50,333 nucleotides of DNA from Candidatus Poribacteria bacterium (GCA_036339735.1 JAYZAL010000039.1:1-50333); one strand, 5' to 3'. Numbered from the stretch's first letter, positions 14,004 to 50,333 are shown. Notes: a model not told the origin generated them from the letters alone. Translations and numbers: made by a program.

Positions 14004-14020
14004 GAATCAATAATTAGAGC

Positions 14021-14605
14021 TCATTTGGTTTCTGTAGCTTCAGCACCAATGGAGGTTAAATAGGTGATGGCTCCCGTATTACCTGATTCTAAAGCTATCT
14101 TCAGTGGGGTTCTGTTTTTATAGTGTCGAGAATCATTAGGATTCGCACCTGCTTCGACCAAAATTTTCAGTACAGCAGCATACTGATCTTCTTTTCCTTC
14201 TCCTCTGGCTGATCCTCCCCAAGCTGCAGCATGTAGGCAATCTAGCGAATTAGCACTGGCTCCTAAACTCAGCAGTAGATGAATGGTATCAACGCGCGCG
14301 TTGTTGGCTGCCCACGACAGTACCGATCGATACCAGTTGGCCTTACTCGCATTGACATCAGCACCAAAACGCACTAATTCTCGAACTAGATTCAGCTTGC
14401 CGTCGTTGGCTGCATAGTGTAGAGCTGTACTACCTCTCACGAAGGGGTTTCCTTGTTCGTCCGGCCCGACCCATTCGAGGGTTGCAATCTGGGAATGATC
14501 ATTTAAGATCTGGATACCCAACGCTTCCTTTTCTTGATCATATTTTGTGGCCAACAGTTTATAGAATGGATCGTTTTCATGATGTACCTGATTCTCTTGA
14601 GTCAT
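14021..14605 (-). CDS. Ankyrin repeat protein
   Basis: GSTALHYAANDG, LVRFGADVN, SVLSWAANN, LVEAGANPN, TPLKIALESG. Confidence 0.9.
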   Translation of the reverse strand: MTQENQVHHENDPFYKLLATKYDQEKEALGIQILNDHSQIATLEWVGPDEQGNPFVRGSTALHYAANDGKLNLVRELVRFGADVNASKANWYRSVLSWAANNARVDTIHLLLSLGASANSLDCLHAAAWGGSARGEGKEDQYAAVLKILVEAGANPNDSRHYKNRTPLKIALESGNTGAITYLTSIGAEATETK

Positions 14606-25890: not shown

Positions 25891-28680
25891 TTAATTTATC
25901 ACTTGGTTCAGTTGTTCAACTAGTTCGTCAGGCGTAAACGGCTTACCTACGTACCCATCCATTCCAGCTAACTTGCACTGTTCCTGTACTTCTTCTATTC
26001 TTGCCGATATCGCCAAAATTGGGACCCTTTTAAGTCCAGACGATTGTTCCAGTTGCCTAATTTGTTCCGTTACCATGTAGCCATTTGCTTCCGGCATCTG
26101 TAAATCCATCAGGATGAGATCATATTGATTTTGTTGGTAACTCGTCAAGCACTCTGTGCCATTAACGGCCTCATCTACCTGACAGCCTAAATTCTCCAAA
26201 AATTTTCGAAAAATAAAGCGATTAACCATATTATCATCAACTACTAGCCCCTTCATGTTTGACAAGTTAATCGATTTTTTCTTTTCCATTTCTGTTTTTT
26301 TCCGTAAACCAACCCTTACTAATGGCAACTCAAACCAGAAATTTGATCCTTCTCCAATTTTACTGTCTACCCCGATCTTTCCACCCATGCCTATAACAAA
26401 CTTCTTACTAATGCTTAAACCTAAACCCGTTCCCCCGTAACTACGACCGATCTCTGGACTTGCCTGATTAAATGACTCAAATATATTCGCTTTTTGATCT
26501 GTTGGAATGCCAATTCCTGTATCTATGATTTCTACTCTAATTCCAAGCTTAGTGGTTTTAAGTAATAACTTCACTTCACCAACCATCGTGAATTTTATTG
26601 CATTAGCAACTAAATTGATTACCACTTGTTTGATTTTTTGCCGATCACCCAACCACTCACCACACATCGTAGGTGGGTAATCTAGATTTAATTGGATTTT
26701 TTTCTGCTCAGATAAAGGAAGTAAGATTTGTCGAACTTGTTTAAAGATATCAACTAAATCAAATGGTTCTTGGTGATGTACGATTCTACCATCTTCTATC
26801 TCGGCAAACTGAAGGATCTCATTAACAACCGTTAGTAGGTATTGTCCAGAATTTTTTGCTCTATTAATATGACTCCTATGCTCAGAATTTAACTGTTCGG
26901 TATCAATTAAATTTAGAGAGCCAATTATCCCATTCATTGGTGTTTTGATTTCGTGGCTTACTTGGGATAAGAAGTCCTTTTTGATCTGAATTTCCTTCTT
27001 TGCATTTTGTTTTAGAAGTTCTAATTGTTCAACATGTTCTTGGTAAGTCAATACTTTGCCGAAATCAGTCACGGTATCACGTCTGACATTCTTATCCAAA
27101 TTAAGCGTTTCTAATTTTTGTAGCTCTAGAATCTCTGATGGTATCTCTGTTAAACAATTATGACTCAGATCAAGTGATACTAACCTCTTTAAACTGCCTA
27201 ATTCAGGTGGAATTTGATAGATTAAGTTTTTGCTCAGGTCTAATTCCGCCAACAGATTCAATTGGCTCAATTCGATCGGCAATTGCCCGAGTGCGTTCCC
27301 ATCCAAGCGTAATTTTTCCAGTTTAATTAAATCTCTAATAGTCTCTGGTAAAAATTTTATTTGATTATCGCTCAAATAAAGTTGTCGTAAATTTGGTAAT
27401 CTATTTACTTCAGTAGGAAATTTCTGTAATCGATTCTGGTTCAAATTGAGAGATTGCAGTTTGAATAGCTTATTTATCTCAGCTGGAATATCTGTCAAAT
27501 TGTTATTTTTCAGATTTAGGTCATGAAGACTTTTCAGATTTCCAATCATACTGGGTAAAAATTCTATTAAGTTCGATTCTAAATTTAAGACTTTCAAATT
27601 GGTTGTTTTGTTCAATATCTGCGGAAAGGTTCCGACTTGGTTGAACCCTAAGTGGAGTGTGCTCAGACTAATCAGTTGACCAATCTCAGCCGGAATTAGT
27701 TTGATCTCGTTCCACTCTAAATGGAATCTAGTCAGACGTGTCAATTGTCCAATCTCAGCTGGAATTACCTCAATCTTGTTGAATCCCAAATGGAGTTCAG
27801 TCAAATTGATCAGTTGACCAATCTCAGCCGGAATTAGCTTGATCTGGTTCCACCCTAAATGAAGTCCAGATAGATTGGTCAGTTGACCAATCTCAGCCGG
27901 AATTACCTCGATCTCGTTCGATGCTAAACCAAGCCTAGACAAATTGGTCAGTTGACCAATCTCAGTTGGAATTACCTCAATCTTGTTCGAGGCTAAACTA
28001 AGTCTAGACAGATTACTCAGTTGCCCTATCTCAGCTGAAATCACCTTAATCTGGTTATACCCTAAATGAAGTTCAATTAAATTAGCCAACTGAAAAATCT
28101 CGGGTGGAATGATCTGGATGTGATTTCCTACCAAATTCAGTATGACTAAACTGGACAGTTGATCAACTTCGGGCGGAATAATATTGATCTGGTTATATAC
28201 TAAATGGAGTGCGGTTAGGTTAGTCAGTTGCGCAATTTCAGCCGGAATCACCTCAATTCGGTTGGCCCCTAAGTGGAGTGTGCTCAGACCAATCAGTTGC
28301 CCAATCTCGGGCGGAATCACCTCGATTTGGTTGGATCCCAAGTGGAGTGCGGTTAGGTTAGCCAGTTGCGCAATTTCAGCCGGAATTACTTCAATATGGT
28401 TCGATGCTAAACCAAGTCTGGTGAGATTAGCCAGTTGCCCAATCTCGGGCGGAATCACCTCGATTTGGTTGGATCTCAAATGGAGTGTGCGCAGATTAGT
28501 CAGTTGGCCAATCTCAGGTGGAATCACTTCAATTTGGTTGGATCCCAAATGGAGTTCAGTTAAATTAGTCAGTAGGCTAATCTCAGGGAGAATTTCATGC
28601 AAACCTTGATTACTCAAATCAAGAACTTGAACTTTATCCCTTTGTTTAATAGACTCCGATAAGTCGGTATAGGTTTTCAC
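25891..28680 (-). CDS. Hybrid sensor kinase: N-terminal leucine-rich repeats + HisKA + HATPase + receiver
   Basis: About 22-23 LRRs of 23 aa; H-box VSHEIKTPMNG, N-box NLVANAIKFT, DTGIGI, GGTGLGL; receiver VVDD/LMDLQMP/KPF. Confidence 0.92.
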   Translation of the reverse strand: MKTYTDLSESIKQRDKVQVLDLSNQGLHEILPEISLLTNLTELHLGSNQIEVIPPEIGQLTNLRTLHLRSNQIEVIPPEIGQLANLTRLGLASNHIEVIPAEIAQLANLTALHLGSNQIEVIPPEIGQLIGLSTLHLGANRIEVIPAEIAQLTNLTALHLVYNQINIIPPEVDQLSSLVILNLVGNHIQIIPPEIFQLANLIELHLGYNQIKVISAEIGQLSNLSRLSLASNKIEVIPTEIGQLTNLSRLGLASNEIEVIPAEIGQLTNLSGLHLGWNQIKLIPAEIGQLINLTELHLGFNKIEVIPAEIGQLTRLTRFHLEWNEIKLIPAEIGQLISLSTLHLGFNQVGTFPQILNKTTNLKVLNLESNLIEFLPSMIGNLKSLHDLNLKNNNLTDIPAEINKLFKLQSLNLNQNRLQKFPTEVNRLPNLRQLYLSDNQIKFLPETIRDLIKLEKLRLDGNALGQLPIELSQLNLLAELDLSKNLIYQIPPELGSLKRLVSLDLSHNCLTEIPSEILELQKLETLNLDKNVRRDTVTDFGKVLTYQEHVEQLELLKQNAKKEIQIKKDFLSQVSHEIKTPMNGIIGSLNLIDTEQLNSEHRSHINRAKNSGQYLLTVVNEILQFAEIEDGRIVHHQEPFDLVDIFKQVRQILLPLSEQKKIQLNLDYPPTMCGEWLGDRQKIKQVVINLVANAIKFTMVGEVKLLLKTTKLGIRVEIIDTGIGIPTDQKANIFESFNQASPEIGRSYGGTGLGLSISKKFVIGMGGKIGVDSKIGEGSNFWFELPLVRVGLRKKTEMEKKKSINLSNMKGLVVDDNMVNRFIFRKFLENLGCQVDEAVNGTECLTSYQQNQYDLILMDLQMPEANGYMVTEQIRQLEQSSGLKRVPILAISARIEEVQEQCKLAGMDGYVGKPFTPDELVEQLNQVIN
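27089..28635 (-). repeat. 69-bp tandem coding repeats (LRR array)
   Basis: Recurrent cagttgaccaatctcagccggaatta-type units at a 69-nt period, most similar between ~27640 and 28570. Confidence 0.9.
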
Positions 28681-36488: not shown

Positions 36489-36757
36489 AATAACTCCCCA
36501 AAAATATACTAAAACGATAACAGTAATATGAAGATAATTTATGACTTTTCCTGCCAGAAGACTATACGTTGGATCAAGAAGATATCAAGGTAAAACAGCT
36601 AATAAAGAAAAGTCAAAGCAAGGATTATATGACAGCGATTTGACTACTAGGTTCGCCAGTTATATTTTGTGCAAAGATTAGTATTTAGTAAAAAGACGTC
36701 ATCAAGCAAAAAAATTGCTTCAACTGTGACACTATTCCTAAAATTGAATTAGGATCA

Positions 36758-38965
36758 TTATTCAGGTTCGTGGCTTCTTCTTACATGGTACATACGAAAC
36801 GTACCGTAGTTTTTGGCTAATTGTAACAATCCAACATAATCACAAGTTATATCATCGATATTATTAGCGACAATTAAAGAAGCAAAATGCTCGCTGGCAT
36901 AGACTTGACCTGGTGGTGTAATAGGTTCAATACGAGCAGCTCGGCTCACATGAGAACCAGAAAAATTAAGCTGTTTAATCATTGGGTCTGTGAACCTATA
37001 TACTGGACCTGTGTGAAGTGCAATACGCAGATTAATGTCCGGTGGTAGCCCTCGCTGAGCCCAATCCGTATCACGGATTAGATCTCTCTGCTTCAGCGCA
37101 AACTTTGCTGCGTCTTCTACTGAAGCAAATACAAAATAGAAAGCATCACCCCACGTATTTCTGGTCAATGGCTGGTAGGGATATTTCTCCATTTCCTCAA
37201 CTATATAACCAAGAAACTCTTGGATAAAATGTGCAACTTCCATTTCGGATAATTTACTATATCCAACTACATCTGCAAAAAACATAACTCGTATTTCATG
37301 CGAAAAATGAGAGTCTGCTTCCGAAATAGAAACACTTTCATGTTGTTTATATTTATTAGCTGGCACATCTATAATCTCGATGTCGCGTCCCAAATTTTTC
37401 CATCTATTAATCACTTCTGGGGTCTCACCTAATTTCCCTGGCTCTTGACCATCCCATACTGCGAGAGAAACAAGTGACGTGTCGTATTCTTGCGCCCTTA
37501 ATATTGCAGTTCCATCTACAATTAGGCTGGTAAATTCTAGAAGGACACGATTATCTTTAGCCGGATAATCATTAGCCATGATTACTCGACCAGCTTGCTT
37601 TAAGATGCTTTCAAATCGATTCTTCCAGTTTGAATTTGGGTCTACATCGACACTATCTTTAACGAATTGTTCTATCTCATAAGGAAGTATTATGTCAACT
37701 TCGCCGCCGCGTTCTATCATAGCTTCTAAGAACAAAATATCAGAGCCTGCAGCAGCTGTAGAAATCCCAATATCCGCGTTTAATTGATTTAGCTTGTTAG
37801 TAATTCGTTCTTTGATCTCCGATTCCAAATGAGTAGGGAAGCGGGAGCCTGATTGCCCACTTGGAAGTACTGGGTGTCCAGTGAAAACAACAATCTTAGG
37901 TAAAGCAAAACAATCATCTAACCACTGAGGTTCTTTTCCTAGTGCTTCTAGTAATAGTCGTGCATTACGCCTAGTTGAGTGTAAGCTTGCAAAGTTTCCC
38001 TTTCCAATTTCACCCGCAGAACTATAATATTCTCGAGCTTGCTCTGGTTGCCCCAGAATAAGCAAGACCTCGCCTAATGTTGCCTGTGTCCAGTAATCTT
38101 GTTCTGATTCTTTGCTCTGCTCCAGACTGAGCTGATAAACGTGGCTACCAATTTGGTGTGCTATGTCTAGGTTGCCTTTGATCAATGCCAGTGTGGCAGC
38201 ATTGATGCCAGTGTAACTGCTACCAGTGTTTTTATAAGAGGTATAGTAAGCTTGAAATGCGTGTTCTAGTTGCGATAGTTTTTCTCGACTACCGCTTTCC
38301 TTTTCCCATAAATCTTTGTGCGTTCTACCGAGTAAACCAAGGGTGTCATCATCTTGGTGACCTTCGCTTTGTAATTCACGTGCTATTTGGTTCGCTTTGT
38401 AAGGAGAACCACCTCGAGCAAGCGCCAGGCCCAGCAATTGTCTCAGTCGTAAATCATTACTCCAAACCTCAAGTCCTTCCGAAATAACATCAAAAGCTAA
38501 CAAAGGTTCTCCGATGCCTAGAATTCGATGTCCTAGATGACGATAAATTTCTGGGACGTTTCTCCAATTGTTTGAAGATCTACCACGCCAAATGTCGCTT
38601 AAATCGCGAAGATTTAAACTTTTATCTTCCAGACGATCAAGAATGTTTCTAACTTCATCTTGTACTCGCACTTGCCCTTCAACTGGTGGAATAATACGGT
38701 AGCCTAGATGTAAGATAGTTTTGATAGCTTCCATTGATGTGTTTCGATCATACTCTTTTTCAGACTCAGGGAGTTGATCATAGCTTACCAAGCAAGGATG
38801 AGTCATTATTTTATCATCACGCTCAGGACCAAGGGTCCAACCGTCTTTTATTCTTTGTTGGGCCCATATTTCATGGGTGTTTTCCGATAGTAATTCTGTT
38901 AAATCAGCTAATTCTTCTGGTAATTCTACATCAGAAGTGTCTATAGGATTCGGGGTATAACTCAT
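36758..38965 (-). CDS. RyR domain + TPR-like (TRAF-binding/TPR-S type) + SLOG-like domain + class III nucleotidyl cyclase
   Basis: RyR: YTPNPID..ENTHEIWAQQRIKDGW..HPCLVSYDQLPESEKEYDR; TPR: GLLGRTHKDLW, YTGINAATL, DYWTQATLGE; SLOG-like: FTGH, AAAGSDILF, ILPY, VWDG; cyclase: FADVVGYS, TWGD, RIALHTGPV, AARIE. Confidence 0.82.
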   Translation of the reverse strand: MSYTPNPIDTSDVELPEELADLTELLSENTHEIWAQQRIKDGWTLGPERDDKIMTHPCLVSYDQLPESEKEYDRNTSMEAIKTILHLGYRIIPPVEGQVRVQDEVRNILDRLEDKSLNLRDLSDIWRGRSSNNWRNVPEIYRHLGHRILGIGEPLLAFDVISEGLEVWSNDLRLRQLLGLALARGGSPYKANQIARELQSEGHQDDDTLGLLGRTHKDLWEKESGSREKLSQLEHAFQAYYTSYKNTGSSYTGINAATLALIKGNLDIAHQIGSHVYQLSLEQSKESEQDYWTQATLGEVLLILGQPEQAREYYSSAGEIGKGNFASLHSTRRNARLLLEALGKEPQWLDDCFALPKIVVFTGHPVLPSGQSGSRFPTHLESEIKERITNKLNQLNADIGISTAAAGSDILFLEAMIERGGEVDIILPYEIEQFVKDSVDVDPNSNWKNRFESILKQAGRVIMANDYPAKDNRVLLEFTSLIVDGTAILRAQEYDTSLVSLAVWDGQEPGKLGETPEVINRWKNLGRDIEIIDVPANKYKQHESVSISEADSHFSHEIRVMFFADVVGYSKLSEMEVAHFIQEFLGYIVEEMEKYPYQPLTRNTWGDAFYFVFASVEDAAKFALKQRDLIRDTDWAQRGLPPDINLRIALHTGPVYRFTDPMIKQLNFSGSHVSRAARIEPITPPGQVYASEHFASLIVANNIDDITCDYVGLLQLAKNYGTFRMYHVRRSHEPE

Positions 38966-39351
38966 ATAGAATCCTTTACCTTCTGGGTGTTTCCTCAGGG
39001 AAACGAGGCATTTTCAGCATAATTTTTCCTTTCTATCTCAGCTTCCAAATCACATAGACTATAGCAAGACTAGTTGGGTTTATCAGGATAACTTACTAAG
39101 AGAGAAACCTTCCGCTAACTACATTAACTTTACAGATCTAGAACGCTGATACACAAGAAATCGACTCAAAAATATTGTAATCTCGTTAAAGCAGACTCAA
39201 TATTTATTGATTAAAAAAAGATGACTCCGAAAACAATCATTTACTCAAAACATATGAGTTGATATATTGGAGTTAGTAGTAGAAAATTTAATTTCCTAAA
39301 CTACAGCTCATGTAAATCTTCTATCTGATAAATTATCATTTGGAGTCTGAT

Positions 39352-40788
39352 ATGTTGCGACCACCTCAATCTTCCTTACTAACTGATAACAACCTCGCCT
39401 TATTTTTAGACTATTATCAGCTAAGCATGGGACAAGCCGATTTTAAACGTAAAAACAATTCTATCTGTACAGAAAATTATTTTATTCGTAAGATTCCACA
39501 AGGCAAATACTTAATTGTTGCAGGGCTGGAGCAAGTAATACATTATGTTCTAAACCTAAAATTTACCGATGCAGATTTGGATTGGTTACAAAGCACTGAT
39601 CCTGGAGTAGAATTGGAATCTGATTTCATTGATTATTTGCGCAATTTTAAGTTTGATGGCGATATTTATGCTCTACCGGAAGGCTCATTAGCTTTCGCAA
39701 ATGAGCCAATAATTAATGTGACAGGTAAGTCAATTGATGTACAGATATTTGAGACTTATTTGTTAACCATTATGAATTTTCAAACTTTGATTGCCACAAA
39801 AGCCGCTCGCGTCACACATAGTGCACAGGGACGAATTTGCTTCGATTTTGGTGCCCGGCGCGCACATGGTCGTGATGCTGCTATACTAGCTGCCAGAGCA
39901 GCCGTTATCGGTGGTATCAAAGCAACTTCCCTAGTGGTAGCTGCAAAGTATTTCGATGTTCCTTATGTAGGAACAATGGCCCATAAATTTGTTCAAGATA
40001 GTTCTTCTGAACTTCAAGCTTTTCGCGATTATGCACAGGTTTTTCCCGACAATACTATTTTACTAGTAGATACCTATGATACGTTACAGGGGACTAGAAA
40101 TGCCGTTCAAATAGCAAAAGAAATAGAGATGCAAGGGCAACAAATACATGGAATTCGAATTGACAGCGGCGACCTTATTTTTCTTAGTCAATCTGTTCGT
40201 GAAATTTTAGACCAAGCAGGTTTACACAAAGTAAGAATATTTGCTAGTAATGATTTAGACGAGTTCCAAATTGATCGACTCATAAAAGCAAAAGCACCAA
40301 TTGACGGTTTCGGAGTGGGAACTCGTTTAGCAACTGGTGCTGTTCTAAATTCCATTACAGGTGAAGGTGGAGCTTCTTCCATGCCAGGGGTGTATAAACA
40401 TGTCGAACGAGAAGAAAACGGCATAACCATTCCCACTCTCAAAATTAGTTCTGATCCAGGTAAGTCGACGCTCGCAGCCAAGAAACAAGTGTTGAGAATA
40501 TCTAGAAATTCTCAGTATATTAAAGACCAAATTTGTCTTTGGGATGAAGTCTCAGAAGACCACGGATTGCTGATTCCAATCGTCAAAAATGGAGAACTTA
40601 TTTACAATTTCCCTTCGGTACAACAAATTCAGAAATATACAACGGAAGAATTGACCAAACTACCTAATTTTTACAAGACTTTAAGTGAGAATGACGAGGA
40701 TACAAACGATAGCGAATATCCGGTCGGAATCAGTCCTCAGCTAGTAGCATTACAAAAAAAAATAATAAAGGAGAAAACAAAACCTTAA
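39352..40788 (+). CDS. pncB: Nicotinate phosphoribosyltransferase
   Basis: LDYYQLSM, FDFGARRAHG, GTMAH (phospho-His), LLVDTYDT, GIRIDSGDL, ASNDLDE, FGVGT; GGAG RBS before ATG 39352. Confidence 0.93.
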   Translation: MLRPPQSSLLTDNNLALFLDYYQLSMGQADFKRKNNSICTENYFIRKIPQGKYLIVAGLEQVIHYVLNLKFTDADLDWLQSTDPGVELESDFIDYLRNFKFDGDIYALPEGSLAFANEPIINVTGKSIDVQIFETYLLTIMNFQTLIATKAARVTHSAQGRICFDFGARRAHGRDAAILAARAAVIGGIKATSLVVAAKYFDVPYVGTMAHKFVQDSSSELQAFRDYAQVFPDNTILLVDTYDTLQGTRNAVQIAKEIEMQGQQIHGIRIDSGDLIFLSQSVREILDQAGLHKVRIFASNDLDEFQIDRLIKAKAPIDGFGVGTRLATGAVLNSITGEGGASSMPGVYKHVEREENGITIPTLKISSDPGKSTLAAKKQVLRISRNSQYIKDQICLWDEVSEDHGLLIPIVKNGELIYNFPSVQQIQKYTTEELTKLPNFYKTLSENDEDTNDSEYPVGISPQLVALQKKIIKEKTKP

Positions 40789-40805
40789 TTATTTAGTGAA
40801 TTTTC

Positions 40806-41591
40806 TCAATTAATCAAATCCTTAGCACAGCGAAACCCTTGGCGTTGTCTCAAATACGAAGTCGATTCGGGTTGATCAGAAGCTCGAGCTGATACTCGCA
40901 GGTTATACCAGTCATCGTGCCATGACCCACCCCTTAACACTCGGTATTTTCCATCACGGGGGCCCTGTGGGTTTTTTTTGGGTGAATTCTGATAAAAGTC
41001 GGGCGTATACCAGTCAGCACACCACTCCCAAACATTACCTGACATATCGTATAATCCGTATTTGTTAGGCGCAAAGTAACCAACTGGAGAGGTTTTGTCC
41101 CATGTATCTGCTTGGCTTAATTTTGATCGTTTACGAATCCACAAAATTAATCTTTTTTGGCGTGTATTATCCCATTTACTGTCTCCACTGGGATTTTCGA
41201 AATTGGCTAAGGTACTATCAATTTCATCCCCCCAGGGGTAACGCTTTCCTTCGAGTCCCCCGCGTGCCGCATATTCCCACTCAGCTTCAGTAGGCAATCT
41301 CTTTCCTGCCCACTTGGCATAGTCATTGGCATCATGCCAAGTGATACCAATGATTGGATGATTGTCATATGGAGCAAATTTGCTCACCCAATCAGGTATT
41401 GGCCGAGAATTAGTTTTTTGTACAAATTCTCTGTACTGTCCAATGGAAACCAGATGAGTGTCCATGTAAAAAGCGTCAAGTTCAACAGAGTGAATTGGAA
41501 ACTCATCATGACTTCCTTCCTGAAAACTATCCCCCATCTCAAACATACCGGCTGGAATTAGTGACATATTTTCGTGTACGTAATCCTTCAT
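40806..41591 (-). CDS. Formylglycine-generating enzyme (SUMF1/FGE-sulfatase) domain protein, probably non-catalytic
   Basis: FEMG, RLPTEAEWEYAARGG, YGLYDMSGNVWEW, RVLRGGSW, GFRC; no catalytic Cys pair after RGGSW. Confidence 0.9.
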   Translation of the reverse strand: MKDYVHENMSLIPAGMFEMGDSFQEGSHDEFPIHSVELDAFYMDTHLVSIGQYREFVQKTNSRPIPDWVSKFAPYDNHPIIGITWHDANDYAKWAGKRLPTEAEWEYAARGGLEGKRYPWGDEIDSTLANFENPSGDSKWDNTRQKRLILWIRKRSKLSQADTWDKTSPVGYFAPNKYGLYDMSGNVWEWCADWYTPDFYQNSPKKNPQGPRDGKYRVLRGGSWHDDWYNLRVSARASDQPESTSYLRQRQGFRCAKDLIN

Positions 41592-41794
41592 ACTTCTATA
41601 TATTATGGTTTATGATCCGCTTATACCCAGCCGACATGTTTGTTCGGAAATTCAATCAATTTCATCAAATCTTCAATTCAAAAAGCTCATACTAGAACTG
41701 ATCGATTTAAGATTTTATTTTCCTATTTAAGATTTTAACTTTGGATAGATAAGGATTAAATAAAACAGTTAGTCGACGTAGATTAGTTTACAAC

Positions 41795-43993
41795 CTAGTA
41801 ATCTAATATGTCCGCCAATTCATCTAGGTTTACCAAAATTTGATCTATTACTTTTTCATCGGAGGTGGAAATAGTACCCAAAGTAGTTGGGGGATGCATA
41901 CGAAAATAAGTATTCCAAGCGGCATGAACATCGACTAATTTCAGTTCATTCTGGCTGTTCCCAGTTTCGTAAGCTTTTGCACCATCTTTCCAAGCTGATA
42001 TAAAAGAAGAACCAAGAGCTCTGATATCAACCGGAATCCACGATTTTCCTTCATTTTGGACGATTAATTTCTTTTCAATGTTAATACTAGAAAGTTGAGT
42101 CATGGAGGTTTCAAACATCAAAAAAATATGATCGCCGAGATCAACTATTTTAGTTCGGATATCCACTGACTCCAGTAATGCTGCATACAATGTTGTCAAT
42201 TCGTCGCAATCTCCAATTGGGTTTTTAGTTGCTAGTATTGATCTCGGATATTTCATCTTTTTGAACGGTCCATCAACATCAATATACCAAAGGTCAGCGG
42301 CGCTCAGTAAGCTTTGCGTATAACTGGCTGTTTCATCGATAACATATCCTTGTCCATATATCGATTGAAACGGGACATTTGCATCTGGGCGATATTGAAT
42401 ACCTAATGAATTCAAGGCTTCGTAGATTTTCATCGCAGTAACTAAATTAGTAAACTGTTTTACGTGGTTATCTTTTACCATAATTTGAGATGCAGACAAG
42501 GCAAATGACTTGGTAATTGGATCAGCTGGATCAATAAATGCTACCATTGGATCCAATTTTTCACGATAAGCTACTTTTCCCATTTGTCTTAAAACAATAG
42601 GTCGACGCTGACGAATCTCGCGAGTTCGCCCCAAGTATTTGTAGTTAATCAAAATTTCGGCTTCGGTACGAATATCTTGATCCAATTTTTCCACATTCTT
42701 ATTAAATTGAAAGGCTAGTGGAATTCTCTTAGTACTCAGATTCGAACCTACTGAACTCAGCAAGATGTTTTTTGCTACGACCAAAGGTTTATCCATATAT
42801 TCTGGTATAAAGGTCGAAACTGAAACTTCTAGTTCTTTTTTAAAGGCTGAAGTCAACACTAACTCGCCGCTTAGTGGGTTTGGTGTTTGATATTGTTGGT
42901 AAAAGGATAGCAAGACATCTCTAAGGATAATTGAATCTACCAAAATTCGCTTAGGATTATAATCAAACCCCAGAATCATTGAGAAACGGTGAGTATCATT
43001 CAAGGTTGGTGAATTCAAATAAGCGTAATCAAATCTCAATCCTCCATACTGAAGTGTACCTCCTACCGATAGACTAATGGGCTCTCGGAATTCTGATTCC
43101 GAACCGACGGGAGTAATCACGCCTAGGGGGGCTTCTATTCCTCCACGAATTGCTAGAATGTTTTGTATAGTTTGTTCAACTCCAAAGTGAAGACTATGAT
43201 CTAAATCGAGAGCTAGTGTAGTTTGGCGCATGGGTTTATACATCATACCAAATCGGAGATTTCGAGATGCTAACTTATCAGTTTCGTTTCGTTTCGAATT
43301 TTCGATATCAACTGCTTCATAATCAAAATTGATTTTAGTATCATTAATATCTTGGCCGAATAACCCAAATGCGAACCAATCGGTGGGCTGGTAGCGTAGA
43401 CCAACGTCAAAACCAAATCCGGTTGCATTACCAATTGGGTGTGTATCCAGTGCACTACTGATAGATACTCTTTTGACATTCAGACCAGCAGAAATTGATT
43501 TCGTGATACCAATTCCGTACGAAACACTGATACGATCGTCTTTAAATTCAAGTTCATCATCTCCAAAACGAAGTTGTATCCAATCCATACCAATCGCATG
43601 CTGGTCTGTAATTGGAAAAATGTAACTGAGATAATTTTGCTGTAGGCCTTCAATTCCATATAGATTAGTCATCATCCCACTGATAGTCTGCTGTCCAACG
43701 TTGACTAAACCAGCAGGATTCCAAGCAATAGCATTAGCGTCATCTGCAATCGCTGTAAAGGAAGAACCCATACCAAGTGGACGGACACCGACCGGCATTT
43801 GATTATTTGCTCTGAGAATTAGGAATTCTCCTACAATCAGATTTAGGCAAATTATTATGCAAAAAGATAAAACAGCAATTGTACTAAACGAAAAATTTAA
43901 CGAACTTCCAATTGGACAAACCCTACTAAATATAGGTAAATGTATGTACAATTTGAGAAAATTCTTAACTTGATTTGATACTGATTTACTCAT
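41795..43993 (-). CDS. PorV/FadL-like outer-membrane beta-barrel fused to a transglutaminase-like domain
   Basis: GVRPLGMGSSFTAIADDANAIAWNPAGL hatch motif, beta strands ending in THRFSMILGF; C-terminal GDCDE..DHIFL..WIPVD (Cys-His-Asp). Confidence 0.72.
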   Translation of the reverse strand: MSKSVSNQVKNFLKLYIHLPIFSRVCPIGSSLNFSFSTIAVLSFCIIICLNLIVGEFLILRANNQMPVGVRPLGMGSSFTAIADDANAIAWNPAGLVNVGQQTISGMMTNLYGIEGLQQNYLSYIFPITDQHAIGMDWIQLRFGDDELEFKDDRISVSYGIGITKSISAGLNVKRVSISSALDTHPIGNATGFGFDVGLRYQPTDWFAFGLFGQDINDTKINFDYEAVDIENSKRNETDKLASRNLRFGMMYKPMRQTTLALDLDHSLHFGVEQTIQNILAIRGGIEAPLGVITPVGSESEFREPISLSVGGTLQYGGLRFDYAYLNSPTLNDTHRFSMILGFDYNPKRILVDSIILRDVLLSFYQQYQTPNPLSGELVLTSAFKKELEVSVSTFIPEYMDKPLVVAKNILLSSVGSNLSTKRIPLAFQFNKNVEKLDQDIRTEAEILINYKYLGRTREIRQRRPIVLRQMGKVAYREKLDPMVAFIDPADPITKSFALSASQIMVKDNHVKQFTNLVTAMKIYEALNSLGIQYRPDANVPFQSIYGQGYVIDETASYTQSLLSAADLWYIDVDGPFKKMKYPRSILATKNPIGDCDELTTLYAALLESVDIRTKIVDLGDHIFLMFETSMTQLSSINIEKKLIVQNEGKSWIPVDIRALGSSFISAWKDGAKAYETGNSQNELKLVDVHAAWNTYFRMHPPTTLGTISTSDEKVIDQILVNLDELADILDY

Positions 43994-46900
43994 TCAGTAA
44001 AAACTCCTGCTTCTCGAAGCTAGTCAACTGACGTGTTGATCTGATTTCAGCTAATCTTTTTAACCCCGAAATATCTATCAATGGGTGAAACCGAATAGTC
44101 TTATCATGACTTACCGTGGCAATGGCTTTCCCGTCTGAACTGTATTTGACATCAGTAATCTCTGCTGAATGCCCATGCAACGTTAGGACAATTTGGCCCG
44201 AAGAAATATCCCAGACTTTTGCAACTTTGTTCCTACTGCATGTAGCAACTTGACTCCCGTCAGGACTGAACGCAATACCTTGAGGCTCTTCTGGCCAAAT
44301 GGCTATAGACCGCATCACTTGCCCTCTTTCAGAGTCCCAAATTTTAATTGTTCCGTCTAGACTAACTGTTCCCATAAGCGAACCATCTTTGTTGAAGGCT
44401 ACTTTTTTAATTTCCATAGAATGACCTGATAAAGACAGTAGTAGCTGACCCGTTTTTGTATCCCAAATTTTGATTTCAGCATCTTGCCCAGCAGTCACTA
44501 TTTTTTTACCATCAGGACTATAACTCAAACTGTAGATTTCACCTTCATGTCCAATCAAAGTGCTTTCTAGCTCTCCGGATTCCAGTTCCCACAAGCTAGC
44601 CACCTGACCCGATACCGCTAAATACTTTCCATCAGGACTAAAAGATAAGCTATAAATTTCTTTTTCTGTTGTCTTAAATTCTTGCCAGACTTCTCCGGTT
44701 ACTACATCCCAAATAATAGCTTTCGAATCTTTACCCCCCGTCGCAACGTAGCGACCATCATAGCTAAATGATGCGGTAAGCAGTGGAACTTCTCCTATTT
44801 TCCCATGAGAAAAGATATGCTTTATCTGCCTAGATTGTGTTTGCCATAGTTTGGCTGTCCCATCAAGACTAGTAGTGACAAATTGCGATTGATCTTGGCT
44901 AAAAGTAATGCATGTGACTGCCGCTTTATGACTCCGCAGGGGAATATTGTCATTACTTGGAGTTACATCCCAAATTTTGACTATTCCATCTTGACCAGCT
45001 GTGGCTAGCCTGCTTCCATTAGCATTAAAGTCGACGCTATGAATTTCTTCCTGATGCCCGAGAAGAGTGAGAAGTTTTCGACCTGATTGAATGTCCCATA
45101 TTTTGGCTGTTTTGTCATGGCTAACCGAAGCGATTTTGTATCCGGAAGGTCCAAATCTAAGATCTGAAATTAACTCAGTGTGTGCATTAATGTTCTGTTT
45201 TAATTGTCCTGTTTTGGCATCCCAAATACTAATCTGGTAGTCTTCACTACTAGCGGCAATCAAACTTGAATCGGGATTAAAAATGACGTTATTAAATACT
45301 TTACCTGCATTGTCAATCGATAATTGCTCTAGCCCTGGGTTGCTAGTCCATACCTTGATGGTACCACTTTGATCAGCAGTGACGATTTTACTACCATCAT
45401 TACTGTAGTCAAGATCATTAACAATGTTCCCTACTAAAAATTTGGCTGATTCTGTACCCGAATCAGTATTCCAAAGTTTGACGTAGTTGCTACCAGAACC
45501 GGTTGTTGCGACCTGTTTAATTTGGGGGTGGTAGACAAGATTTTGAATAGAGTCTTCATGGGCTTGAATCTCTAATCGAATTTGTCCAGATTCAGTATTC
45601 CACAGAATCACTTTTCCGTCAGCTCCGGCAGTTGCAACCGTTTGCCCGTCAGAATCAAAATCAGCTTTAGAAACCTTATCAGTATGGCCTGCTAACAAAG
45701 TCACAGTATTCGATGTGATATTCCAGATTTTGGCTGACTGATCAGCACTAACTGTCACTAGACGCTGAAGATCTTCCATACCTATCAGTGGGCTGTAGGC
45801 TATATTGTGAATTGTGCTGTCGTGGGCTTTTATGGTTCTTCGGATTCGACGTGCATTTACCACTTGGTGTAGTGCATGTTTAGCTTCACGCTTGGCTTCG
45901 TCAACACCGATTATCTGATCTGAGATCACATCTATATTAGCTTTTTCTACCGCGGTCAAGGCTAATCGAATACTAAGCTCAAGATCATTTTCAATGTTTT
46001 GGATTGCCTGTTCGGCTAACCTTCGAGAAAGTGCAATATTTGCCTGTTCTTCAGCTCGCTTCTTTTCAGCTTCAGCTAAATTCTTTTGTTGTTCAGCTAC
46101 ATTGGCAGACTCAACGGCCAACTCACGTTGTGTATCGGCTTCTCTTCTGGCATTTTCAGCTTCTTGGCGACGTTGTTCAGCTACATTGGCAGACTCAACG
46201 GCCAACTCACGTTGTGTGTCAGCTTCCTCTTTGGCTTTTACGGCCGCTTGTCGTTGTATATCGGCTTCTTCTTTAGATTCTACGGCCGCTTGTCGTTGTA
46301 TATCAGCTTCTCTTCTAGCATTTTCAGCTTCTTGACGACGTTGTTCAGCTACATTGGCAGACTCAACTGCTAGCTCACGCTGTGTATCGGCTTCTCTTCT
46401 GGCATTTTCAGCTTCTTGGCGACGTTGTTCAGCTACATTGGCAGACTCAACGGCCAACTCACGTTGTGTGTCAGCTTCTTCTTTGGCTTCCATAGCCGCT
46501 TGTCGTTGTATATCGGCTTCTTCTTTAGCTTCCATGGCCGCTTGTCGTTGTATATCAGCTTCTTCTTTAGATTCTATGGCCGATTGTCGTTGCTGCTTGG
46601 CAATAGAAGCTGATTGTTCAGCAACTAATTTTTGGGACACTGCTTCTTGTCGCTGAATTAGCGCAAAAATAGTCATACCGATGATTAAGGCTGCTACACT
46701 AGCTAGACCACCTATCATCTGTTGAAACCGTGTCTTTGCTACTCGGCTAGCTTGAACATAGGTTTGTTGTAGTGCTGTGGGAGCAGGATGAAGTTCTGTT
46801 TCGATTGCATCACCAACCCAACGCCCTGCAGATCTTAGATCCCTTCCTCTCAGCAAGGAACTGTTGTCCCGACCATTATCATCCCATTCAGTTGCACGAA

Positions 46901-47327
46901 GATGTAGTCTCGTGTGCTGCTTGACGTGCTCCAAATCGGTTTGAAGAGCTTCGACTAAAATTTGAAAACTTGCCTCGAAATCATCTTCATCTTCTCTCAT
47001 GTAGACCCAATTAGCTGCAGCTAATCGTTCGTGCATATCTTCGGGTTCTACAAATCTCCAAACAACAGGAATAATACGTTTCCCGCCTTCCATAGCGTGG
47101 ACAACTTCTTTTTCGCATTCAGGAGAAGCTATCGAATCCGGACTAATCACTATCAGAAAGGAATCAGCATTATTGATTCCTTTGTATATTTCATCTAACC
47201 ATTCTGAGGCTGGGGGGATATCTTTCCAATCGACCCAAGTCGAAAATCCACTTTCAATCAGCTTATCATGTAACCCTTCACAAAAATCTTTGTCTCTTCG
47301 AGAATAGGAAAGCATTAGGTCAGCCAT
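43986..47327 (-). CDS. TIR domain + single TM helix + long coiled coil + about 14 WD40 repeats
   Basis: TIR: LSYSRRD, WVDW, FLIVISPDSIASPECEKEV; TM MIGGLASVAALIIGMTIFALI; 14-aa repeats; GH..WD repeats; GGAG RBS. Confidence 0.92.
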   Translation of the reverse strand: MADLMLSYSRRDKDFCEGLHDKLIESGFSTWVDWKDIPPASEWLDEIYKGINNADSFLIVISPDSIASPECEKEVVHAMEGGKRIIPVVWRFVEPEDMHERLAAANWVYMREDEDDFEASFQILVEALQTDLEHVKQHTRLHLRATEWDDNGRDNSSLLRGRDLRSAGRWVGDAIETELHPAPTALQQTYVQASRVAKTRFQQMIGGLASVAALIIGMTIFALIQRQEAVSQKLVAEQSASIAKQQRQSAIESKEEADIQRQAAMEAKEEADIQRQAAMEAKEEADTQRELAVESANVAEQRRQEAENARREADTQRELAVESANVAEQRRQEAENARREADIQRQAAVESKEEADIQRQAAVKAKEEADTQRELAVESANVAEQRRQEAENARREADTQRELAVESANVAEQQKNLAEAEKKRAEEQANIALSRRLAEQAIQNIENDLELSIRLALTAVEKANIDVISDQIIGVDEAKREAKHALHQVVNARRIRRTIKAHDSTIHNIAYSPLIGMEDLQRLVTVSADQSAKIWNITSNTVTLLAGHTDKVSKADFDSDGQTVATAGADGKVILWNTESGQIRLEIQAHEDSIQNLVYHPQIKQVATTGSGSNYVKLWNTDSGTESAKFLVGNIVNDLDYSNDGSKIVTADQSGTIKVWTSNPGLEQLSIDNAGKVFNNVIFNPDSSLIAASSEDYQISIWDAKTGQLKQNINAHTELISDLRFGPSGYKIASVSHDKTAKIWDIQSGRKLLTLLGHQEEIHSVDFNANGSRLATAGQDGIVKIWDVTPSNDNIPLRSHKAAVTCITFSQDQSQFVTTSLDGTAKLWQTQSRQIKHIFSHGKIGEVPLLTASFSYDGRYVATGGKDSKAIIWDVVTGEVWQEFKTTEKEIYSLSFSPDGKYLAVSGQVASLWELESGELESTLIGHEGEIYSLSYSPDGKKIVTAGQDAEIKIWDTKTGQLLLSLSGHSMEIKKVAFNKDGSLMGTVSLDGTIKIWDSERGQVMRSIAIWPEEPQGIAFSPDGSQVATCSRNKVAKVWDISSGQIVLTLHGHSAEITDVKYSSDGKAIATVSHDKTIRFHPLIDISGLKRLAEIRSTRQLTSFEKQEFLLNE
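46098..46559 (-). repeat. Eleven 42-bp in-frame units forming a higher-order 252-bp repeat
   Basis: Units A=ADIQRQAAxxxKEE, B=ADTQRELAVESANV, C=AEQRRQEAENARRE in the order AABCBC-AABCB; near-identical DNA. Confidence 0.92.
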
Positions 47328-47355
47328 CTTTCATTTCTCCTTGTCAATTGTAAAT

Positions 47356-47620
47356 TTAATGGTTCCAAGCTTGACCACTTTGCTTTGGGTCTGGCTACCC
47401 ACAGATACCATTACAATGTATAGGCCAATGATCAACATTTTTCCGTCACCATCCCGTCTATTCCAAGAAACAGATTGTTTCCTTCGATTGAATGTTCTTT
47501 AATCAGTTAGTCAATTGACTAGTTGTCCATCTTCTAACCGGACCTTATGCTAGCATTATTGGCTGGTTGATCCAGCATAAAAGAAATAGTGGTATCAGCG
47601 CGAAAGTTATTTGAATTGGG
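47356..47620 (-). pseudogene. Remnant C-terminal FlgD-Ig-like domain, paralogous to the end of the 48604 gene
   Basis: Manual translation DTTISFMLDQPA..GQLVN*LTD*..VSWNRRDGDGKMLIIGLYIVMVSVGSQTQSKVV/WNH* aligns to RTTISFQLDKAA..GFLVSWLAEQ..LPWNGRDYNGNPVATGLYIVTVAVGSVTQNKIVNVWNQ*. Confidence 0.8.
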
Positions 47621-47804
47621 TAAGGAAATGTCAGCTTAAAATTGACAGATTTATGTACAAATTGAGCCGTTTATAATGCTTGGGAACTAATCGGTCCCTG
47701 TCACCACATAATAAGCTAGAGGTAAAAAACCGCAGAAGTATAGCAATATGGTTCGATAACACGAAACTTGATGGTGCTCGGCCTGTAGTCGTTTTGACTA
47801 AATT

Positions 47805-48347
47805 TCAAATGATCTGGACACCTGCTTTCTTCATTTCGATCATTGCATTTCTACCGTCGTTTGGATCTAAGTTTACTGCTCGAATAGCTTCTTGGTGAAC
47901 GACTACTTTGAATCCCTGATTAATAGCATCAAGGGCTGACGCTTTCACACAATAGTCTGTCGCCAATCCAACTATTGTTAATTCTTTGACTGCTTTCTGT
48001 TTTAGCCACTGAGCTAGGTTTATATTAGTGGCTTCGAACGCTGAATAGCCATCATCTTGGTTGTCCGTGCCTTTATATAAAATTTGATCGACCGAATCTA
48101 AATTTAATTGCGGATGAAAATCAGCACCAGGCGAATCGGCGACACAATGAACAGGCCAATGATCAAAGTGAATCGTTTCATCAGGGTGCCAGTCTTTACT
48201 AGCACAAACTATATCGAACTGATTAATTAACTGGTTAATAAATGGTACTACCTGATCTCCCTCTGGTACCGCTAAGGCACCACCAGGACAAAAATCGTTT
48301 TGTACATCAACGATTAGAAGTGCTTTGGTAATAGAAAGATTTTTCAT
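47805..48347 (-). CDS. pncA: Nicotinamidase/pyrazinamidase
   Basis: IVDVQNDFCPGGAL, KDWH, WPVHCV, KGT, YSAF, GLATDYCV; catalytic D/K/C and metal ligands present. Confidence 0.93.
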   Translation of the reverse strand: MKNLSITKALLIVDVQNDFCPGGALAVPEGDQVVPFINQLINQFDIVCASKDWHPDETIHFDHWPVHCVADSPGADFHPQLNLDSVDQILYKGTDNQDDGYSAFEATNINLAQWLKQKAVKELTIVGLATDYCVKASALDAINQGFKVVVHQEAIRAVNLDPNDGRNAMIEMKKAGVQII

Positions 48348-48603
48348 TTTCGACGATTTAGATCCTTTTATACTGTTGTGTTAATCTTCACTTTACAAGC
48401 CCCTTGATGTTTAGACTAGTTACCACAGAGATAAATTACAAGATTTCTCTGTCTATCCTGCCAAAAACAGACAAAAATATCAAGTTTTTTGTACTTAAAC
48501 TGGATTGACTGACTCGTTTGGTATTCACCGAAAAAAACAGACAACGAACTCTTATAGTATTACATTGCCAGTAAGATATCTTTTGTACGATTAGATGACA
48601 GTT

Positions 48604-50333
48604 TTACTGATTCCATACGTTGACTATCTTATTCTGGGTCACACTACCGACTGCTACTGTGACTATGTACAAGCCGGTAGCAACCGGATTTCCATTATAG
48701 TCACGACCATTCCAAGGTAGAGCAACCTTTCCTGCAGGAAATAACTCTTGTTCTGCAAGCCAGCTGACAAGAAATCCGCTCATGTCATAGACTTTGATGC
48801 TGGCAAGTGCAGCTTTGTCTAATTGGAAAGAAATAGTAGTCCTAGTGTAGGGTGCTAGGCGACCTATCGGTGAAAACACCCTAGGTTGACACGTTAGGCT
48901 ATTTTTCAGGATGGCAGCTGAACTATCAGCCTGATTCGGTGTCATCTCCATAACCCCATACTGGCCTAGTTGATGAATTGCCGTACTAACAGTCTTTTTC
49001 TCGGTATCAACTGCTCCTCCAATCATCTGCCACTGTTTGGTATTTTCTACCAGTTGGAAAATGATTGGCTTATAGCCCGGGGTCAAGCTCTCATTACTAT
49101 AGGATATAGTTAGAGTGGCCGGTTTAATTTTGTTTAACTTTTTCAGGTCTGACTCCAACAAATATGATAGATTTAGCGGCCTCCAACTTCTACCTAATGG
49201 CCAGTCAATAGTCGAGGAAGGAACATGGTTAATGGTTACGATAGTGTTCTGCTCTAGGCTATTAGGTGGCAAATATAGATTTACTCTACCATCAGATGAC
49301 TGTAAATCTCCTCCTCTAGACTTCTCTGTCAGCGATGTTATTGAGACTTGGACCGTTGTTTCCCTGCGCTGATTTACCTGATCTTCCACTGTTAGACGGA
49401 AGCTGTAAATACCACGCCTCTTACCTGCTAGCCATTGTAGAATTTCACCATCCTCCACCGGCGACATAATCGGTCTGGGAGTAGCTTTAAGCCAATTTGT
49501 TGGTGCATTACCTTCTCCAAAATCAATCCAATATGATTTGAAGTTAGGGTCAGTAGCTGTACCGAATAGAGTCAAGACTTGACTTATCTGTTCGTTATCG
49601 AGCGGCCTACTAATCTTTGCCTGTGGTGGTGTATTATCTACTGTTACTGCGCGTATAAGTTCAGTCGGAGGTTGTCCGCTCTGATCAGTTGCAACTAATT
49701 TTATTTCGTAAACTCCGTCTGGAAGGGATGATGTATCCCACTCGGCCAGCCGATTATCTTCCATTATTCCTTGAATAATGGATAATGAATGCCAATCAGA
49801 TGACAATGGCCGAAATAATAATTCAACCTGATCTAAATTGACATCAGTTACGATACCTGTTATACCAATAATCTGACTGACAACTTGGTTTTGAGTGGGC
49901 GACTGTAATGTGACCTGGGGAGGCGTATTATCAATGGTAATAGTACGACGAGCAATAGAAACTTGTCCTGACTTGTCGTCCACGGTTAGGCGCAGTGAGT
50001 AAATTCCATCATCCGTTATGGTTGTAGAAAATTGCCTTAGAATATCAGATTTAACTGGAGTATTACTAATGCCTCCAATTGATTGCCAATTATCTTCTCT
50101 CGGGTCTATACCAGGCCCTAATTCCAGTAGAAAAGATTTGAAGTGATCGTCAATGGCTGTTCCCAAAACTTTCAGATTGCCACTAACAACAGCGTCTGAC
50201 ACCAAAAGGTCGATTTCGGCTTTTGGTGGTGTATTATCTGCTATAATTCGTCTCTTCACCACGACCTGGTCATTTGTAAAATCCTCCACTATTAACTTCA
50301 AAGTGTACTGACCTTCTAATCCCGTAGCATCCC
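48604..50333 (-). CDS. Large surface protein with tandem bacterial Ig-like repeats and a C-terminal FlgD-Ig-like domain (5' end outside the window)
   Basis: Repeated DNTPP / WDTSSLPDGVY / YSLRLTVDD units; TTISFQL..WNGRD..GLYIV tail; the frame stays open to the window edge (WDATGLEGQYTLKL). Confidence 0.82.
   Translation of the reverse strand, partial: DATGLEGQYTLKLIVEDFTNDQVVVKRRIIADNTPPKAEIDLLVSDAVVSGNLKVLGTAIDDHFKSFLLELGPGIDPREDNWQSIGGISNTPVKSDILRQFSTTITDDGIYSLRLTVDDKSGQVSIARRTITIDNTPPQVTLQSPTQNQVVSQIIGITGIVTDVNLDQVELLFRPLSSDWHSLSIIQGIMEDNRLAEWDTSSLPDGVYEIKLVATDQSGQPPTELIRAVTVDNTPPQAKISRPLDNEQISQVLTLFGTATDPNFKSYWIDFGEGNAPTNWLKATPRPIMSPVEDGEILQWLAGKRRGIYSFRLTVEDQVNQRRETTVQVSITSLTEKSRGGDLQSSDGRVNLYLPPNSLEQNTIVTINHVPSSTIDWPLGRSWRPLNLSYLLESDLKKLNKIKPATLTISYSNESLTPGYKPIIFQLVENTKQWQMIGGAVDTEKKTVSTAIHQLGQYGVMEMTPNQADSSAAILKNSLTCQPRVFSPIGRLAPYTRTTISFQLDKAALASIKVYDMSGFLVSWLAEQELFPAGKVALPWNGRDYNGNPVATGLYIVTVAVGSVTQNKIVNVWNQ

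Follow-up and report, generated by a model that had tools for sequence, protein, structure and literature searches.

Genes for TIR-domain proteins recur beside genes for a SLOG-containing sensor cyclase: a predicted signalling module in Candidatus Poribacteria and other phyla

Introduction

Poribacteria are sponge-associated bacteria, and this study concerns one locus in a 50,333-nucleotide stretch of DNA from a Candidatus Poribacteria genome (GCA_036339735.1, JAYZAL010000039.1:1-50333), which as a whole is called the window below. Positions 36758-50333 of the window contain seven open reading frames (ORFs), one of which encodes a predicted membrane protein with a TIR domain and WD40 propellers (TIR-WD40), and another a class III nucleotide cyclase that also carries RyR, TPR-S and SLOG domains. 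As the comparison of genomes indicates, the pairing of TIR genes with genes of such SLOG cyclases is real and widespread, and its predicted function is signalling. An initial annotation of the same DNA had proposed that the TIR domain makes an ADP-ribose (ADPR)-type messenger that is read by the SLOG-bearing cyclase, and at the level of gene content this core idea gains strong comparative support. We think it likely that the locus mixes a TIR-receptor/sensor-cyclase signalling module with unrelated genes, namely an FGE paralogue and two housekeeping genes, pncA and pncB, all of which seem to have become interleaved with the module by local rearrangement in this species alone.

TIR and cyclase genes are linked across phyla

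One genome per species was scanned for homologues of the window cyclase, which resulted in 373 confirmed loci; the linkage counts cover the best 80 of these 373. The 80 homologues are 41-82% identical to the window cyclase and belong to Poribacteria, Acidobacteriota, Cyanobacteria, Gemmatimonadota, Desulfobaccales, Chloroflexota, Bipolaricaulia and Methylomirabilia. With an iterated local TIR profile and simple longest-ORF calling, a TIR ORF was found within 10 kb of the cyclase in 50 of the 80 loci, at most three ORFs away in 47, and as the neighbouring ORF in 38. Pfam was run on 52 of the 62 ORFs found by the profile and gave TIR_2 in at least 50 of the 52 among the families listed, WD40 families filling the other two listings, and no TIR family was found at E <= 1e-5 among 52 flanking ORFs of the 30 loci without a profile match. 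In five genomes from linked loci, TIR_2 domains occur in just 1-4 genes each, from which the chance of a TIR gene adjoining a given gene can be put at about one in a thousand. The co-occurrence of TIR and cyclase genes across phyla is far above chance. In the window's own genome (G000; 4.32 Mb, 107 contigs, 92% complete), the window's TIR_2 gene is the only one found and lies 5.0 kb from the sole cyclase of the family found there. The neighbourhood analysis that the initial annotation had suggested as a check has therefore turned out in favour of a TIR/SLOG-cyclase linkage, which recurs across phyla (38/80 adjacent) and is seen as direct adjacency in a sister genus (genome G004).

The arrangement of the two genes differs by lineage, in that the TIR gene may lie upstream or downstream of the cyclase gene or be convergent or divergent with it. 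The partner architecture differs as well. The Poribacteria partner consists of a TIR domain, a transmembrane (TM) segment and WD40 repeats, the cyanobacterial partner combines three TIR domains with WD40 or CHASE2, Desulfobaccales have TIR-TM-TPR, Acidobacteriaceae TIR-TM-Sel1 and a Chloroflexota metagenome-assembled genome (MAG) TIR-BioY, and two further classes possess C-terminal parts without an assignment. A TM segment follows the TIR domain in 34 of the 62 partner TIR ORFs, as it does in the window protein. This variation in orientation and in partner architecture argues for repeated selection of the pairing and against a single inherited arrangement.

Some loci show additional or different neighbours. 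Six Acidobacteriota loci (L071, L110, L111, L123, L127 and L132) have two TIR genes beside the cyclase, one for the TM-anchored receptor type and the other for a soluble protein of about 500 amino acids (aa), with a second, partial TIR-like match C-terminal of its TIR domain. In a Gemmatales MAG (L131:12478-14523), the cyclase gene adjoins a gene for a DUF4062 plus NACHT/nSTAND protein instead of a TIR_2 gene; as DUF4062 is presumably TIR-like, the number of TIR-linked loci may be an underestimate. In one locus, from a Hormoscilla MAG (L094:9005-9766), an ORF for a Crp-type transcription factor of the kind that binds cyclic nucleotides is located directly upstream of the cyclase homologue, and this factor is a possible reader of a second messenger.

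Domain structure of the sensor cyclase

The cyclase gene (36758-38965, minus strand) encodes a soluble protein of 735 aa, the predicted receiver and output component. Pfam identifies a RyR domain (E 3.7e-34, 117.3 bits), a TPR-S domain (E 9.7e-21), MAP3K_TRAF_bd and a Guanylate_cyc domain (29.4 bits, cut-off 21.9). Residues ~326-560, between the TPR-S and cyclase domains, have no Pfam match, and an alignment of 25 family sequences reveals this middle region as the best-conserved part of the family besides the cyclase core. The AF2 model of the whole protein has a mean pLDDT of 84.8. As a fold search with that model returned matches to cyclase and TPR structures only, residues 345-540 were folded alone (pLDDT 87.8) and searched against about 48,000 representative solved chains. 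The best match is Bacillus subtilis YpsA (Z 17.9, rmsd 2.2 A over 152 residues; Foldseek E 1.2e-7), followed by DprA (Z 13.1), ShosA (Z 11.7), LOG (Z 10.4) and the N-terminal domain of TRPM2 (Z 10.0), and the domain also superposes on the SLOG domain of BcThsA in complex with 3' cyclic ADPR (3'cADPR; 7uxs, Z 6.6, 123 residues). YpsA, DprA, LOG, TRPM and ThsA are all members of the SLOG superfamily. The "SLOG-like" domain of the initial annotation has in this way been confirmed as a Rossmann-like SLOG fold by a model-based structure search.

The cyclase domain itself matches the solved class III cyclases CyaB and CyaC (Foldseek E ~2e-8). In the alignment of 25 sequences D565, D607 and R678 are invariant, which we take to be the two metal-binding aspartates and the transition-state arginine, and the class III core is thus apparently competent. 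The RyR module matches RyR R12 repeats in the PDB strongly, and its residues H31, W34, H56 and D73 are invariant in the same 25 sequences. The family comprises proteins of about 750 residues with the same four-part architecture (564 matches at E <= 1e-3 among 7999 candidates scored), and identity across phyla is 41-47% among the family matches listed.

A relative of the RyR module has been characterized in a phage. Residues H75, W78, H100 and D117 of the phage protein RyDEP are reported to contact 3'cADPR and form a glycosidase dyad, and among its relatives, which bind or cleave 2'cADPR and 3'cADPR, six of eight tested bound such signals (PMC13232231). Both proteins contain a single RyR (PF02026) repeat, and H31, W34, H56 and D73 of the window protein have the same spacing as the four RyDEP residues, a correspondence that is based on spacing and Pfam family and not on structural superposition. 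RyDEP is a small stand-alone viral counter-defence protein, whereas the repeat in the window forms the N-terminal module of a cellular cyclase.

The TIR-WD40 receptor

The TIR-WD40 gene (43986-47327, minus strand) encodes 1113 aa, with an N-terminal TIR domain (residues 1-135; TIR_2, E 6.8e-27), a TM helix, a coiled-coil stalk and about 14 WD40 blades, the latter also recognized by Pfam WD40 families. Homologues have 1116 aa in G004 and 1006 aa in G005, a genome of another genus (g2). The glutamate within the CEKEV motif that had been predicted to be catalytic is E74, and this prediction has gained weight, since of 76 aligned TIR domains from partner proteins, 74 have a glutamate in the respective column. 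In an alignment with SARM1, E74 falls on the KE of the motif HKEIV, the glutamate of which we take to be the catalytic E642. The TIR domain of the receptor is therefore probably of the enzyme type, as far as the alignment can indicate.

A single strong hydropathy peak, at residues 205-223, is found C-terminal of the TIR domain. It is followed by about 240 repeat residues rich in Glu, Gln, Ala and Arg, and then by the WD40 propellers. The coiled-coil stalk is encoded by tandem DNA repeats with periods of 84 and 252 bp and up to 94% matches (46088-46563); the same repeats create spurious plus-strand ORFs at 45994-46656. As the TIR domain needs cytoplasmic NAD+, the stalk and the propellers should face the periplasm, and the protein is a predicted membrane receptor and signal generator. 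The architecture resembles that of animal Toll-like receptors, which have a repeat ectodomain of leucine-rich repeats (LRRs), one TM helix and a cytoplasmic adaptor TIR domain. The window receptor is predicted to have the same three kinds of element, but its TIR domain is N-terminal, so that the order is reversed, the repeats are WD40 and not LRR, and the TIR domain is probably an enzyme and not an adaptor. The resemblance is an analogy and does not reflect homology of the whole proteins.

A stretch of 56 bp upstream of the TIR-WD40 start (47371-47426) recurs near pncA in G001, a genome of the same genus as G000 (L044, G001:C298 1848-1903), with 80% identity and in the opposite relative orientation; it may be either a short repeat or the trace of a rearrangement.

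In animal signalling, TIR domains serve as adaptors, and TPR arrays commonly bind proteins. It is accordingly conceivable that the TIR domain docks on the TPR-S or RyR part of the cyclase and that the signal is passed by protein contact instead of a diffusible NAD-derived messenger. Such a case is known from BcTir and BcTpr, a further TIR-TPR pair that works as a complex, with a BcTir that itself is reported to have no NADase activity (10.1101/2023.05.26.542521). An adaptor of this kind would not explain why the glutamate at the catalytic position is kept in almost all aligned partner TIR domains (74/76), or why the invariant RyR residues are just those of ligand contact, and for relatives of the SLOG (7uxs) and RyR modules, binding of cADPR-type ligands is documented by structures or assays. 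We thus consider a purely adaptor-like TIR domain improbable and prefer a diffusible, NAD-derived messenger.

pncA, pncB and the FGE gene

Two NAD-salvage genes are located close to the TIR gene. pncB (39340-40788, plus strand) is a nicotinate phosphoribosyltransferase gene according to NCBIfam equivalogs (NF006695 474.5 bits, cut-off 469; TIGR01513 452.8, cut-off 297.4; NF009131 above its cut-off), and pncA (47805-48347, minus strand) encodes a nicotinamidase (NF008623, 187.3 bits, cut-off 174). The genes named in the initial annotation are indeed present where it had placed them, and all seven genes of the region are real ORFs; the divergence of pncB and the cyclase gene is correct (374-bp gap), and so is the distance of 7.0 kb between pncB and pncA, which flank the FGE, PorV-TGase (see below) and TIR-WD40 genes. 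Based on this layout a dedicated role in the system had been proposed for pncA and pncB, which would recycle the nicotinamide released by the TIR domain and make the signalling reversible rather than abortive. Some observations can be cited for this idea. Both genes of the two-step route from nicotinamide to nicotinate mononucleotide (NaMN) are found within 13.5 kb of the genome's sole TIR gene, the divergent pncB/cyclase pairing is common to G000 and G001, and NadA is present in G000, so that a de novo NAD route exists too and salvage is not the sole route. A phage system has furthermore been reported to couple the breakdown of a cADPR signal to NAD+ resynthesis (PMC13232231).

The distribution of the genes speaks against it. 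The check for further copies, which had also been suggested, revealed no pncA or pncB in G000 besides those of the window, with one pncB match, one strong pncA match and two weaker matches of the isochorismatase family. pncB is near-universal in the order and was found in 39 of its 41 genomes, mostly as a single match and irrespective of the cyclase, which is limited to one family (f1) and five of the 41 genomes, G000 included. In G004 the cyclase gene is directly followed on the same strand by TIR-WD40 and then by PorV-TGase, and pncB and pncA reside on two other contigs in unrelated contexts, pncB with an FGE gene and the tail of an Ig-protein gene, and pncA between glycosyltransferase and alpha-amylase genes. 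In both G003 and G005 (genus g2), pncB is flanked by thiD and a class I tRNA synthetase gene. A tblastn search (E <= 1e-3) with the window's pncA and pncB gave no match in any of the 80 cyclase-homologue loci. Within the window, a gap of 477 bp separates pncA from the TIR-WD40 gene.

In G001, the homology to the window DNA spans FGE, pncB and the first ~88 codons of the cyclase gene and then jumps to sequence matching window position 22128. This jump is a deletion junction inside a contig (L045, G001:C235 2838-2920; window 38709 versus 22128) that removed the equivalent of about 16.6 kb. A DNA search of G001 found no match to the TIR-WD40 and PorV-TGase genes; pncA, pncB and FGE are kept, and pncA is found on another short contig with neighbours other than a TIR gene. 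In G002, also of the same genus, the region matched by FGE-family motifs only, and pncB, pncA and the cyclase gave no match, which at a completeness of 91% is uninformative in either direction. As the pnc genes are retained where the system is lost, and the system is found at loci that lack them, the proposed packaging for nicotinamide recycling, with its reversible response, fails on its own terms: the linkage is absent in other genera and in 80 of 80 cyclase loci. We regard a dedicated role of pncA and pncB as very improbable, and both look like housekeeping genes that came to lie beside the TIR system by a coincidence of one species.

The gene between pncB and PorV-TGase (40806-41591, minus strand) encodes a stand-alone FGE-sulfatase (FGS) domain protein of 261 aa (Pfam E 1.4e-67) of doubtful membership in the system, with no signal peptide visible by eye at its N-terminus. 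It adjoins pncB in G000, G001 and G004; in G001 it aligns in two reading frames, possibly due to a frameshift or an assembly error. Window positions 41007-41567 within this gene are matched in part by dozens of DNA stretches in G001, G002 and G004, which suggests that FGE-sulfatase domain genes are a large paralogous family in these genomes. FGS domains are known from conflict systems (Kaur et al. 2021), and FGE was considered as a sensor component, but it was set aside because it remains next to pncB even where the TIR trio lies at another place and because the family is multi-copy. Hydropathy gave no TM segment in the cyclase, FGE, pncA or pncB proteins.

The PorV-like partner and its order-wide relatives

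The gene that follows TIR-WD40 (PorV-TGase; 41795-43993, minus strand; 732 aa) overlaps it by 8 bp, from the PorV-TGase start to the TIR-WD40 stop. It encodes a PorV-like outer-membrane barrel (residues ~60-345) and a transglutaminase (TGase)-like C-terminal half. The initial label "barrel-transglutaminase" is partly borne out: the first half is barrel-like and matches NF033709 PorV_fam (PorV/PorQ) with E 1.8e-23, but at 83.7 bits stays below the 90-bit cut-off and is not a curated PorV member. The TGase half is the least certain label of the locus, as the match to Transglut_core is weak (E 0.051, 14.3 bits, cut-off 23); it matches one Atlas cluster with Transglut_core on 58% of the members (score 0.95), and it has a visible Cys...His...Asp pattern, which we take to be the motif of transglutaminase-like cysteine peptidases. 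PorV-TGase directly follows the TIR-WD40 gene also in G004 and G005, and the coupling of the TIR-receptor gene to a PorV-like barrel/TGase gene is a lineage-specific feature. A further copy of the barrel protein is encoded elsewhere in G000 (contig C19).

Upstream of pncA, the window ends within a gene (48604-50333, minus strand) for the C-terminal part of an immunoglobulin-like (Ig) repeat surface protein (Big_3_3, PKD, FlgD_ig) with a sorting tail of the type IX secretion system (T9SS; Por_Secre_tail). Homologues of this protein (1200-1830 aa) are encoded 5' of the PorV-TGase gene across the order. There, at seven loci (L049-L055, in G039, G015, G012, G020, G014, G027 and G008), a cluster encodes a WD40 protein (~800 aa), a giant Ig protein with a T9SS tail (1200-1830 aa), PorV-TGase (~700 aa), a ~300-aa protein, a CHASE2 histidine kinase and a sigma-54 response regulator. 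Its genes for the Ig, WD40 and PorV-TGase proteins are paralogues of those in the window and are arranged in the same order. In the window, by contrast, the WD40 protein has gained the TIR domain, the TM helix and the coiled coil, and the genes of the two-component output are missing. The Ig, TIR-WD40 and PorV-TGase set of the window thus looks like a duplicate of the order-wide cluster, in which the cyclase may stand in for the missing CHASE2 kinase/sigma-54 output.

Relation to Thoeris and the question of defence

Known systems that combine a TIR enzyme with a nucleotide-sensing effector are the Thoeris systems, and the window likewise encodes a TIR domain with the predicted catalytic glutamate and, near the TIR gene, a sensor-bearing effector (SLOG, TPR-S and RyR). 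In type I Thoeris, the SLOG domain of ThsA (SIR2-SLOG) reads the 3'cADPR made by the TIR protein ThsB, and the middle domain of the window cyclase superposes on the BcThsA SLOG domain. However, it is much closer to the YpsA (Z 17.9) and DprA (Z 13.1) branches than to ThsA (Z 6.6), the window protein lacks a SIR2 domain, and the ThsA models of PADLOC give no match. In type VIII Thoeris, the ThsB TIR protein makes canonical cADPR and the TPR part of ThsI is proposed as the cADPR sensor, and the authors of the preprint mention that this TPR had been predicted earlier to take part in TIR signalling (10.64898/2025.12.03.692087). As in the window, a TIR enzyme is there combined with an effector that has a TPR-type sensor beside a Rossmann-like nucleotide-processing domain. 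The output of ThsI, according to the preprint, is a "CMP hydrolase" thought to deplete nucleotides, whereas the window protein has a class III cyclase and an extra RyR domain; the TIR partner in the window, moreover, is a transmembrane receptor with a WD40 ectodomain, and the window system is not known to have a defence phenotype. By analogy, the TIR/SLOG-cyclase pair can be regarded as a variant of Thoeris-type signalling, since its logic would be that of Thoeris. Literature searches retrieved no description of a RyR/TPR-S/SLOG cyclase as a TIR partner; Burroughs et al. 2015, Burroughs & Aravind 2020 and the supplementary tables of the Thoeris preprint are outside the scope of these searches and may bear on priority.

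From this similarity the possibility arises that the system is itself a Thoeris-like anti-phage defence, in which the TIR protein would detect infection and the cyclase, as the effector arm, would cause growth arrest or death via a cyclic nucleotide. In line with this, the TIR domain weakly matches ThsB-type PADLOC models (E 1e-7 to 1e-6), the combination of a TIR protein with a SLOG/TPR-sensor effector follows the same logic as type I and type VIII Thoeris, and the diversity of partners, the patchy distribution in the family and the loss in G001 fit accessory conflict-type genes. The large sensor part beyond the TM helix is probably outside the cytoplasm, however, which would be an odd site for sensing phage replication, and neither known defence genes flanking the system nor a gene for a killer activated by cyclic nucleotides nearby were found. 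In addition, the TIR gene is coupled to a barrel gene whose order-wide paralogues are located together with a CHASE2 kinase and a sigma-54 regulator, which looks like envelope signalling. We regard phage defence as possible, though on the whole unlikely. Given the lineage-specific outer-membrane layer and the missing defence neighbours, sensing of the envelope or the environment is at least as likely as phage defence.

Proposed signalling pathway

The receptor would sit in the inner membrane by its one TM helix, with an enzyme-type TIR domain in the cytoplasm and the coiled-coil stalk and WD40 propellers outside it, and its gene would be translationally coupled to that of the PorV-like outer-membrane barrel/TGase protein. 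An envelope cue may activate the receptor and bring the TIR domains together, which would then cleave NAD+ to a messenger of the cyclic-ADPR type. At least one of the three nucleotide-sensor modules in the cyclase protein would bind this messenger, whereupon the cyclase domains would dimerize and form a cyclic nucleotide as second messenger. Class III cyclases act as dimers, and as a single RyR repeat must pair to give a two-fold domain, a ligand-driven pairing is a plausible switch. In addition, hydrolysis of the first messenger by the RyR module may terminate the signal. The co-loss in G001, where the cyclase gene is cut after about codon 88, the DNA of TIR-WD40 and PorV-TGase is missing and pncA, pncB and FGE are kept, would agree with a module composed in this way.

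Several observations weigh against this interpretation. In the DNA covered, 30 of the 80 loci have no TIR ORF, many of which are short, cut by a contig end or end in a truncated WD40 ORF. The adjacency count of 38/80 rests on crude longest-ORF calls, and related genomes are not independent samples in such counts. In the window itself, three genes separate the cyclase and TIR-WD40 genes, one of them on the opposite strand. The cyclase of G005 and its TIR-WD40/PorV-TGase pair are found on different contigs, and the G003 cyclase has an internal stop, with no TIR-WD40 gene found beside it. PADLOC gave no match for the cyclase, PorV-TGase, FGE, pncA or pncB proteins, and the window is not evidently a defence island, as no recognisable defence genes were found as neighbours. 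Finally, the base-specifying pair of the cyclase is non-canonical. Adenylyl cyclases presumably have Lys/Asp and guanylyl cyclases Glu/Cys at these positions, and if the motifs are placed in this way, the window protein has N603 at the lysine position and N667 at the second specificity position, the latter being variable within the 25-sequence alignment; this leaves the cyclase product open and means that activity is not assured. Despite these points, we hold to a TIR-receptor/sensor-cyclase module interspersed with housekeeping genes as the likely composition of the locus.

A more far-reaching idea can be advanced tentatively, and we would not expect it to be right in full. The Poribacteria protein, shaped like a Toll-like receptor and docked to the barrel/TGase protein, may report on the envelope and not on phage, through a two-messenger transmembrane pathway that would replace the CHASE2 kinase/sigma-54 output of the ancestral cluster.

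Further features of the window

A promoter and terminator scan of positions 36500-48700 gave 35 promoter-like sites versus 32.0 expected and 14 terminator-like sites versus 8.5 expected from shuffles; it was no better than the shuffles and yielded no operon boundaries. Across all seven proteins, PADLOC reported weak TIR-level matches and no system-level match. Elsewhere in the window (3687-4718, 13212-14605, 18231-19595 and 25891-28680) are genes for several ankyrin-repeat proteins and for a hybrid histidine kinase that carries an LRR array at its N-terminus. Eukaryote-like repeat proteins with ankyrin repeats or LRRs are of the kind reported for Poribacteria.

Implications

The NAD-salvage genes beside the TIR gene are suggestive yet coincidental, which cautions against reading function from a single neighbourhood. 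If the proposed relay is true, NAD derivatives made by TIR domains would also feed into cyclic-nucleotide signalling, beyond switching on killing effectors, and the bacterial ryanodine-receptor-type domain would gain a cellular ligand context, which fits the recent RyDEP result. The Poribacteria version would add an extracytoplasmic sensor that is tied to outer-membrane proteins, pointing to functions beyond phage defence, and if the reading as an envelope sensor is true, the "immune" chemistry of TIR domains would be a general signalling device of bacteria.

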